Program-made: the position numbers
In this document: one piece after another, positions 15,001 through 18,000 of the stretch
How the letters are laid out: each line of letters opens with the position of its first letter
Numbering within the stretch: position 1 is the first letter of the stretch
UHGV virus genome: UHGV-0250870
Source of the DNA: a virus
DNA: 44,878 nt
Strand: one strand, 5' to 3'

Positions 15001-18000
15001 CGTCAGACCTTGCGAAACGACTGACACAAAAACTGAAGGAGGGCTGGCAGCCGTTTGGTAGTCCGGTGGCCATAACCCCTTATACCCTGATGCAGGCGAT
15101 TGCAGCAGAAGGTGATGTGGTCGTCAGTGGTGCAACTGAGCCGGAGTGGTACTACGTCATCGTACTGGCCGGGCAATCCAATGCCATGGCTTACGGTGAA
15201 GGGCTTCCGCTTCCGGATTCATACGATGCGCCCCATCCGCGCATTAAGCAACTGGCCCGTCGTAACACAGTGACTCCCGGTGGTGAAGTATGCGTATTTA
15301 ACGACATCATTCCTGCTGACCATTGTCTGCATGATGTTCAGGATATGAGTACGATTAACCATCCCCGGGCTGACCTGAGCAAAGGGCAGTACGGCTGTGT
15401 CGGACAGGGCTTACATATTGCCAAAAAAACTGCTTCCGTATATCCCTAATAATGCGGGGATCCTGCTGGTACCATGCTGTCGTGGTGGTTCGGCATTCAC
15501 CCAGGGCACGGAGGGGACATTCAGCGAGTCCACGGGAGCCAGTCAGGATTCGGCTCGCTGGGGAGTGGGTAAGCCGTTATATCAGGATCTGCTTTTCCGC
15601 ACGAAGGCAGCATTGCAGAAAAACCCGAAAAACGTTTTGCTGGCGATATGCTGGATGCAGGGGGAATTCGATATGACGAATGCCAGTTACGCCCAGCAGC
15701 CAGCAGCATTTCTTGCAATGGTACAGCAGTTCCGTGCTGACCTTGCCGGGCTGGCGGCGCAGTGTCACGGTGGAAGTCCGGCATCAGTCCCCTGGATTTG
15801 TGGCGACACGACATACGCGTGGAAACAAGAACACGGTACGCAATATGAAGTGGTATATGGTGCATATAAAGGTAAAGAATCCCAGCAGATTTATTTTGTT
15901 CCCTTTATGACCGATGGTAGCGGAGTTAATACACCGACAAACAACCCGTCAGAAGATCCTGATATTGCCGGGTCTGGTTATTACGGTTCGGCATCCCGAA
16001 CGAACAAAAACTGGGTATCATCAAATCGCCAGACGCATTTCAGCTCATGGGCGCGTCGTGGCATTATTCCCGATCGTATGGCAACTGCTATTCTGAACGT
16101 AGCCGGTCGCACCTTAGCCTTCATTAGTGGTAAGGCACCGGAAATCAAACCCTCGCCCGGCGGCGACACGCCATCGGGGCCGTCTGAAGATGCATCCGTA
16201 CGCACAATCTCCCTGTTGCCGACAGCCGGAGATGCTGCTGCGCAGGGCTGGAGCATTAAGGATGGCGGAATTCAGTTGTCAGAGGGTGTATTTAAGATCA
16301 CCAAGCAGAGCAATAAAACCTGGTGCCTGATGCATCCGGTGGATGACGCAATTACCCTGCTGACACATGGCGGCAGACTGACCTGTAAGTTCCGCCTCTC
16401 AGGCGTACTGACCAACAATCAGTTCGGGCTGGGGATTTATCTGTATACGGACGCTCCCGTTCCTGATGATGTGGCGATGACGGGTACTGGTAATCCGTTC
16501 CTGATGTCTTACTTCACTCAGACCACTGACGGCAGAGTGAATCTGATGCATCACAGGAAAGCCGTAAACACGAAGCTGGGGGAGTTTGGCGATTACGGTA
16601 ACGACTGGCAGACGCTGGAGCTGGTGTTCACCGCCGGCAGTGCCACGGTTACTCCGAAACTGAATGGAGTGGCTGGCCCGGCATTCCAGGTCATAAAAGA
16701 CAGTCTGACACTGGGGCTGAATGCGCTGACGCTGACGGATGTTACAAAAAGTGCAGCGTATGGCGTTGAGATAGAAAGTCTGGTGCTGGAGATAAATGCA
16801 CCGGCATCATCATAAAAAGTGAGCCAGCCAAATGGAAGGTATCGTTAAACTCACCGGTAGTGTCAGTGGGTCGTCTGAGATGCCTGCATGAGTTATCAGA
16901 GCCATCAGTACTTAACTGGTGGCTTTTTTTATTGTTGTCAGCTTCCGGATAACGGGAGACGGGGTATGTACCAGATGGAAAAAATCACAACAGGTGTGTC
17001 ATACACCACGTCAGCGGTGGGAACGGGCTACTGGTTCCTGCAGTTGCTGGACAGGGTTTCCCCGTCTCAGTGGGCGGCAATAGGCGTGCTGGGGAGTCTG
17101 CTGTTTGGGCTGCTGACATATCTGACTAACCTGTATTTCAAAATCAGAGAGGACCGTCGTAAGGCTGCACGGGGAGAGTAAAGCGATGAAGAAAAAATAC
17201 GAACTGGTTGTTAAAGGGATAAATAATTACCCGGATAAGATTACTGTTACTGTGGCACTGGAAGTTGGTGGGTATCCGTCACTGTTGTTGCCAGATGTGG
17301 CTATTAGTCTTGACCGTACTGAAGGTGCCACGCTGGAGTTTTACGAAGCTGAGGCGAAAAAGCAGGCGAAGCAGTTTTTCATGGATGTTGCTGCCGGGTT
17401 ATGTGAAGGGAACGAACCGTTGCCGGAAAAGCGCCCCGTGATTTTAGAGGCGCAGAATGTATGGATAACCTACAAAGGAAATCTACCGGGAAGAATTACT
17501 GGTTCTCTGAAGACTCCACCGGAATCACAACCTTAATTCACTGACCGGAACAGATAAACCTGTCCGTGGGCAGAAACCGATAAATCCTGATAAATATCCA
17601 TGAACGCAAAAATCAGATACGGCCTGTCGGCTGCCGTTCTGGCGCTGATTGCCGCTGGTGCGCCTGCGCCTGACATTCTCGACCAGTTTCTGGATGAAAA
17701 GGAAGGTAACCACACCACGGCATACCGTGATGGTGCGGGGATCTGGACCATCTGCCGTGGTGCCATCATGGTGGATGGTAAACCTGTTGTTCCAGGCATG
17801 AAGTTGTCGAAGGCAAAATGCGACCGGGTTAACGCCATTGAGCGTGATAAGGCGCTGGCATGGGTGGAGAAAAACATCAGAGTGCCACTGACCGAACCCC
17901 AGAAAGCGGGGATCGCGTCATTCTGTCCGTACAACATTGGTCCCGGTAAGTGTTTCCCGTCGACGTTTTACAGACGAATTAATGCAGGTGATCGAAAAGG

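Follow-up and report, generated by a model that had tools for sequence, protein, structure and literature searches.

The stretch analyzed here is UHGV virus genome UHGV-0250870 (44,878 nucleotides [nt], hereafter the window), in which a 116-codon open reading frame (ORF) with an ATG start occupies positions 17186-17536 of the + strand, between the gene of a phage-21-type pinholin (S) and that of a signal-arrest-release (SAR) endolysin (R). The first-pass annotation had taken this ORF for an extra gene of unknown family. The gene is present and placed between the two lysis genes as claimed; its family, however, is a known one. The encoded protein (116 amino acids [aa] plus the stop codon) matches Pfam PF07041 (DUF1327) over residues 1-112 with 152.8 bits against a cut-off of 25 (E=3e-45), and it is 100% identical to WP_000731249.1 of Escherichia coli M1/5, which RefSeq names 'YdfR family protein'. 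It also matches PHROG families 406, 2091, and 1085, all of which are function-unknown families (E=1e-63 to 4e-65); NCBIfam has no model for it, and no Rfam RNA family overlaps the ORF. Intact homologues number in the hundreds, and their overall ratio of nonsynonymous to synonymous substitution rates (dN/dS) is 0.25-0.48, which indicates a real gene under moderate constraint. Because of the Pfam and PHROG matches, the hundreds of intact homologues, and these dN/dS values, the ORF is, judged by its sequence, far beyond a chance ORF.

Among 5426 complete E. coli genomes, 3022 have a match to the gene, at up to 8 places each, and it also matches 101 phage records, including H-19B, BP-4795, YYZ-2008, Shiga toxin 2 (Stx2) phage 86, mEp460, and many Stx1a/Stx2c phages. 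Together with the Qin prophage of K-12, these cases make the arrangement a common one, rather than the departure from the canonical cassette of adjacent S and R genes that had been proposed. The family itself is very small, with 91 representatives at 50% identity among 1.84 billion proteins, and among 185,579 species genomes the Escherichia-type gene is confined to Escherichia and Shigella, besides two contigs binned as Veillonella parvula and Bacillota metagenome-assembled genomes. The loci on these two contigs (L183 and L185) are Qin-type ydfR loci 47-48% identical to the query, as is the E. coli K-12 type; they are most likely mis-binned Escherichia prophage DNA. Five database proteins (P0001, P0002, P0029, P0081, and P0082) show internal core duplications or holin-YdfR fusions, artefacts for which errors of assembly or frameshifts at the 4-nt S|ydfR joint are the probable cause. 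In the literature searched, we found no study of the S-ydfR-R arrangement, and DUF1327 was mentioned in a single paper, in passing only. Family and gene order are already known from Pfam, RefSeq, and the K-12 annotation, and in this sense the feature is catalogued and ordinary.

The description of the ORF as well-initiated is borne out. Only 4 nt separate the S stop codon from the ATG, and a Shine-Dalgarno (SD) sequence, GGGGAGAG (17171..17178, +), lies in the last codons of S, 7 nt ahead of the ATG, forming a duplex of -8.5 kcal/mol with the anti-SD. We show here that the DUF1327 ORF would be translated from this strong SD, buried in the end of the holin gene. For transcription, a consensus scan, the sole and therefore weak basis of these negatives, detected no promoter-like site on the + strand between 12000 and 20000, nor any strong or credible terminator-like site from the start of S to the end of R; terminator-like hairpins were seen ahead of S (16898-16926) and in the interval separating R from Rz (18224..18256, +), the latter with a 14-pair stem. 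The ORF is transcribed in the late-operon orientation, without a promoter or terminator signal of its own. Co-transcription with the lysis genes, as put forward in the first-pass annotation, is thus upheld to the extent that such a scan detects no signal for separate transcription.

Comparison with Shigella phage POCJ13 reveals how the gene sits in the cassette. The POCJ13 holin is identical to window S, and R starts 4 nt downstream of it behind the same GGGGAGAG; in the window, this 4-nt joint is occupied by the 351-nt ORF and a 63-nt spacer. The GC contents of the ORF (45.9%) and the spacer (44.4%) are lower than those of S (53.2%), R (54.3%), and Rz (54.7%). In the conservation survey, 434 phage records had an S21-type holin, but no more than 101 carried the gene, and about 77% of such cassettes are without it. 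It does not behave as an essential component, then, in that pinholin/SAR cassettes commonly occur without the DUF1327 gene. Taken together, the S|R joint comparison, the low GC content, and the 101/434 occurrence show, at the level of sequence comparison, that in this Escherichia lambdoid prophage the DUF1327 gene is a dispensable accessory, inserted exactly where S and R of a phage-21-type cassette meet. Two traits of a moron are present, namely, a position between genes that adjoin each other in related phages and a base composition unlike that of the neighbors, while a third, an own promoter and terminator, was not found by the consensus scan (weak evidence). A further reading is that the gene is a moron of benefit to the lysogen, acting in superinfection exclusion, anti-phage defense, or counter-defense, alone here and with a convergent partner in the stand-alone family members described below; we regard it as rather unlikely.

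The lysis genes on either side are of familiar types. S (16966..17181, +) encodes a class II holin of S21 type (pinholin) of 71 aa with a dual start at M1 and M4; it matches Pfam PF04971 'Bacteriophage P21 holin S' (E=9e-33) and PHROG holin families, and a gene identical to it in strain M1/5 bears the RefSeq name 'class II holin family protein'. R (17600..18133, +) encodes a SAR-type endolysin of 177 aa that matches Pfam PF00959 phage lysozyme (E=5e-24) and a PHROG endolysin family; its N terminus is hydrophobic and Ala/Gly-rich (YGLSAAVLALIAAGAPAP), and an E-x8-D-x5-T motif could be read from the sequence. Two ORFs on the - strand (17533-17937 and 17525-17713) were dropped, being almost wholly antisense within this well-supported endolysin gene. 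The Rz i-spanin gene follows at 18432..18926 (+; Pfam PF03245, E=2e-49), with a Rz1-like lipoprotein ORF embedded in its +1 frame (18652-18837, +) that carries an LVVSAC lipobox. Between the R/Rz hairpin and Rz, a small hydrophobic ORF of 32 aa (18332-18430, +) ends 1 nt before the Rz start and is without annotation in the matching RefSeq genome.

Upstream of the lysis region lie a Q antiterminator gene (11241-12062) and genes for RusA, a DUF968 protein, and a DNA methylase. Two copies of the STnc100 small RNA (Rfam RF02076; 14061-14251 and 14529-14738, +; 136 and 165 bits) stand just 3' of three tRNA genes (13736-13982), where Stx phages carry toxin genes. After them comes a NanS-p-like esterase that is apparently split into two ORFs in different frames with a 53-nt overlap (14961-15449 and 15397-16815, +), the first with DUF1737 and the second with SASA and DUF6645; it may be a frameshift or a pseudogene. 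DicF small RNA (175-226, -) and the sok antitoxin RNA of hok/sok (9041-9216, +) are typical lambdoid-prophage cargo.

A consequence of the insertion is seen at the ribosome-binding sites. GGGGAGAG serves the DUF1327 gene in the window but serves R directly in insert-free cassettes; since the same sequence stands ahead of R in POCJ13, the insert takes over the ribosome-binding site that would otherwise serve R. What remains to R is the 63-nt spacer (17537..17599, +), which ends in a conserved leader without an SD (ATAAATCCTGATAAATATCC; anti-SD duplex, +0.6 kcal/mol) and whose RNA has no significant structure (z=-0.23). The R leader (17580-17599 in the window) lacks an SD in every insert-bearing cassette with R located (about 155 loci), the anti-SD duplexes ranging from +0.4 to +0.6 kcal/mol. 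About 150 of these leaders read ATAAA(T/C)CCTGATAAATATCC, and four others differ yet are equally SD-less. The last dozen bases before the R ATG are conserved even in Qin, where they form the end of the ydfR frame.

The two sides of the insert differ in regularity. At all 158 IMG/VR loci for which upstream sequence is available, the ATG comes 3-4 nt after the end of an S21-type holin gene, regardless of the core or holin allele, while on the variable 3' side the gap to R ranges from 36 to 1241 nt. Both the strict linkage and the SD takeover bear on the possibility that the gene is an accessory of lysis timing, whose product would regulate the pinholin in trans (compare T4 RIII) or whose capture of the SD would lower the R:S ratio in cis. 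The SD that serves R in POCJ13 serves the DUF1327 gene in the window, the SD-less R leaders are conserved, and ydfR and rrrQ of K-12 Qin overlap by stop and start codon (ATGA), all of which fit such a role. The fixed 5' joint, however, is simply the normal S|R joint, so that its conservation requires no functional tie to the DUF1327 gene. A chlorophenol red-β-D-galactopyranoside (CPRG) envelope-integrity screen lists the Keio ydfR deletion as a hit (supplement of PMC3879167), which also speaks for a part in lysis, although we suspect, without proof, that this hit reflects a polar effect on the downstream SAR lysozyme gene rrrQ. A lysis-timing role is a doubtful possibility; it is the chief competitor of the reading favored below, but not the best-supported one.

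The protein itself has two parts. Its core domain (residues 1-75; 17186..17410, +), delimited from an AlphaFold2 model and the homologue alignment, is acidic (isoelectric point [pI], 5.0) and has a β-β-β-α arrangement, with strands at residues 5-14, 18-27, and 37-43 and a long helix at 50-74. With a diverse 22-sequence alignment, the core (residues 1-72) was modeled by AlphaFold2 at a mean predicted local distance difference test score (pLDDT) of 89.8 and a predicted template modeling score of 0.78, and stand-alone homologues of 72-76 aa span exactly this part. Across the 22 diverse members aligned, Y53-E54 are invariant and Y5 is nearly so; Y53, E54, and the fold are kept at 25-35% identity between the window core and the stand-alone members, of which the closest named relatives are in Salmonella phages. 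The C-terminal module (residues 76-116; 17411..17533, +) is basic (pI 8.4) and swappable. Its model is of low confidence (pLDDT of <50 for residues 73-116). The module is missing from K-12 YdfR and sits on an unrelated N terminus in P0156, and at other loci a coiled coil and a domain of about 130 aa with no annotation come after it, so that the proteins reach 148-329 aa; Pfam finds no domain in the C-terminal extensions of these long forms.

The maximum 19-residue Kyte-Doolittle mean of the window protein is 1.16, and therefore it has no membrane segment. It has no match to a holin family in Pfam or the PHROGs either, so that neither a holin nor a membrane antiholin is seen in it, and the lack of a membrane segment weighs against a lysis-timing role. 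The core pI of the window protein is about 5; of 20 relatives checked, 18 have a core pI of 4.4-5.4. We show here that the product is, by prediction, a small, soluble, acidic protein. The searches for structural relatives returned nothing specific: PDB sequences searched by profile yielded nothing beyond a chance match to Rab5a (E=1.6), and Foldseek, which the first-pass annotation had proposed as a check, yielded no relative at E<=0.001 among viral predicted structures.

Two deeply diverged core alleles (A and B) with the same fold occur in E. coli. Between them, synonymous sites of codons 1-41 are saturated (proportion of synonymous differences [pS], 0.87; proportion of nonsynonymous differences [pN], 0.43), whereas codons 76-112 are much younger (pS, 0.18), and therefore the gene is mosaic. 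Purifying selection is maintained in spite of this deep divergence. One and the same holin protein pairs with the A allele (31 loci), with the B allele (14 loci), and with no insert, which counts against a lysis-timing role. A test of co-variation between core and holin alleles was uninformative, because identical holins occur with both alleles and the cytoplasmic tail of the holin is nearly invariant.

It could also be that the gene has no present function and is a hitch-hiking remnant kept by a recombination-prone joint. Its dispensability for the cassette, the highly variable C-terminal side (truncations, frameshifted forms, and fusions), and the moderate constraint would agree with this, and within allele A, codons 1-41 give a dN/dS of 1.6, a value calculated on very few changes. 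On the other hand, the ORF is intact in hundreds of loci with the dN/dS values stated above, codons 42-75 give a dN/dS of 0.36 between alleles A and B, and the fold is retained with Y53/E54 in distant members. Loss of function is therefore very improbable.

As to what the protein does, the K-12 YdfR data are the sole experimental data for the family, and we favor a mechanism of RNase E binding because of them. A bacterial two-hybrid assay gave signals for YdfR and RNase E residues 1-597; in addition, RNase E residues 1-598 were recovered together with Strep-YdfR on purification, and residues 1-72 of YdfR were sufficient (PMC13232886). The window core is homologous to this interacting region (residues 1-72) at 46% identity. 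By analogy, the window protein may be a late-made cytoplasmic binder of a host factor. It would act in the cytoplasm late in infection, through protein-protein binding by its core domain, and the most likely partner would be the catalytic N-terminal half of host RNase E, the sole experimentally shown partner of a family member. In this way its effect would be on the decay of host or phage RNA, and not on the formation of holes or the degradation of the wall. We put this forward tentatively, as the first among several candidates and with less than even confidence.

Several observations count against it. The RNase E data come from a 46%-identical paralogue with a different C terminus, and the overproduction of YdfR altered few transcripts (PMC13232886). 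RNA co-eluted with YdfR, but a contaminant source could not be excluded according to the authors (PMC13232886), and an acidic core is unexpected for a direct RNA binder. Furthermore, the Escherichia copies are always beside a holin, with the S21-type holin 3-4 nt upstream at 158/158 loci; this linkage fits a lysis-linked role and a fixed recombination joint equally well.

Family members outside pinholin cassettes give a view of the core in other settings. Stand-alone core proteins of 72-86 aa are found elsewhere in late operons. In Salmonella phage ES18, gp24 matches DUF1327 (E=3.8e-07; 30.7 bits against the cut-off of 25) and lies between gpM-like and gpL-like tail genes; its annotation by the authors of that genome is 'possible moron; function unknown'. 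A copy between M-like and L-like genes, as in ES18, is also present at L008, while at L092 and L093 it lies between gpI-like and J-like genes, and at L094-L096 it stands ahead of unrelated cassettes, either holin_8 and holin_3_7 accompanied by a non-SAR lysozyme or a lambda-S-like holin accompanied by a GH19 enzyme. That the family is also found among tail genes and next to holins of unrelated type is a further point against a role in lysis timing. The first-pass annotation had named homology to a known non-lysis moron as a finding that would tell against its claim, and this is in part what we see, since a protein annotated as a 'possible moron', ES18 gp24, passes the DUF1327 gathering score.

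In phage Evi and at L007-L011 and L092-L096, a convergent small gene follows the stand-alone member (- strand; examples are L004 2744-3040, L007 693-992, L010 768-1070, L092 4249-4548, and L177 4233-4520). One partner family (PHROG 25324; about 99 aa) keeps 59-75% identity whether it lies in a tail cluster, ahead of a holin, or between S and R, and in phage Evi, the DUF1327 gene and its convergent partner both lie between S and R. It seems that DUF1327 and the PHROG 25324 partner form a two-gene cassette in other phages, as the recurrence of the pair suggests. In the window, there is no convergent partner beside the DUF1327 gene, and the spacer is only 63 nt.

Several points recommend the reading as a lysogen-benefit moron: ES18 gp24 and gp25 are annotated 'possible moron' and have putative terminators of their own, the convergent partners are conserved, and the gene combines low GC content with strong allelic diversity, mosaicism, and up to 8 copies per genome. 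The window gene, however, has neither a promoter-like site ahead of it nor a convergent partner, and its orientation and coupling to S point to late lytic expression. Almost no ydfR reads were obtained from K-12 under standard growth (PMC13232886), and PADLOC returned no family at E values up to 1 for the window protein, the 329-aa form, the 206-aa P0137, or the Evi partner. We consider both the lysogen-benefit moron and the loss of function less likely than RNase E binding or a lysis-timing role.

Binding of RNase E and control of lysis could also be joined in one scheme. The YdfR core would then be a phage-encoded ligand of the catalytic half of RNase E or, alternatively, of the invariant cytoplasmic tail of the pinholin, made in fixed stoichiometry with the holin through the shared ribosome-binding site, so that RNA decay or an antiholin-like brake would be coupled to the lysis clock, with R tuned down in cis. 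We hold this combined scheme to be quite improbable. RNase E binding through the core remains our tentative preference.

The question matters because the gene stands in the lysis cassette near the toxin genes of many Stx1a/Stx2c phages and is present in more than half of the complete E. coli genomes. If it is true that it tunes lysis timing, endolysin dosage, or late RNase E activity, burst size and the timing of toxin release would be affected. There is a modest chance of a hidden link of RNA decay or endolysin dosage to the lysis clock. What our analysis adds is the insert signature, the capture of the R ribosome-binding site, and the modular nature of a family that also occurs outside lysis cassettes.

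Among named systems, the Qin prophage of K-12 has the order essQ (holin), ydfR, rrrQ (lysozyme), and rzpQ/rzoQ. K-12 YdfR (b1555, P76160) belongs to the same Pfam family as the window protein and, like it, is encoded 4 nt after an S21-type holin gene and before the gene of a 177-aa lysozyme; the two proteins share 46% identity and 67% positives over residues 1-78 (E=8e-24). Unlike the window protein, YdfR has 103 aa, and a helical C-terminal tail replaces window residues 76-116. In addition, the ATGA overlap of the ydfR stop and the rrrQ start contrasts with the 63-nt spacer of the window. The ORFs of H-19B, BP-4795, YYZ-2008, Stx2 phage 86, and the Stx1a/Stx2c phages are much closer, with 92-93% protein identity and the same S-ORF-R order, but mostly represent a 114-aa variant with a 50-nt spacer, compared with 116 aa and 63 nt in the window. 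ES18 gp24 and the stand-alone proteins of 72-86 aa share with the window protein the core domain and a place on the late strand of a late operon; they differ in their tail-gene or pre-holin sites, in having no C-terminal module, and in the convergent partner gene.

Looking beyond the family, T4 RIII is a small soluble cytoplasmic antiholin that binds the cytoplasmic domain of holin T. Like it, the window protein would be a small soluble cytoplasmic protein that could in principle tune a holin by way of the holin's cytoplasmic domain; however, no relationship of sequence or fold was detected between the two, and the family of the window protein also occurs away from holins. T7 gp0.7, T4 Srd, and phiKZ Dip are phage-encoded modulators of RNase E and are early or middle functions of virulent phages. 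No homology to them was found, but they would be functional analogues if the interaction with RNase E holds for the allele in the window. Unlike these three, the window gene is a late-operon gene of a temperate lambdoid phage.

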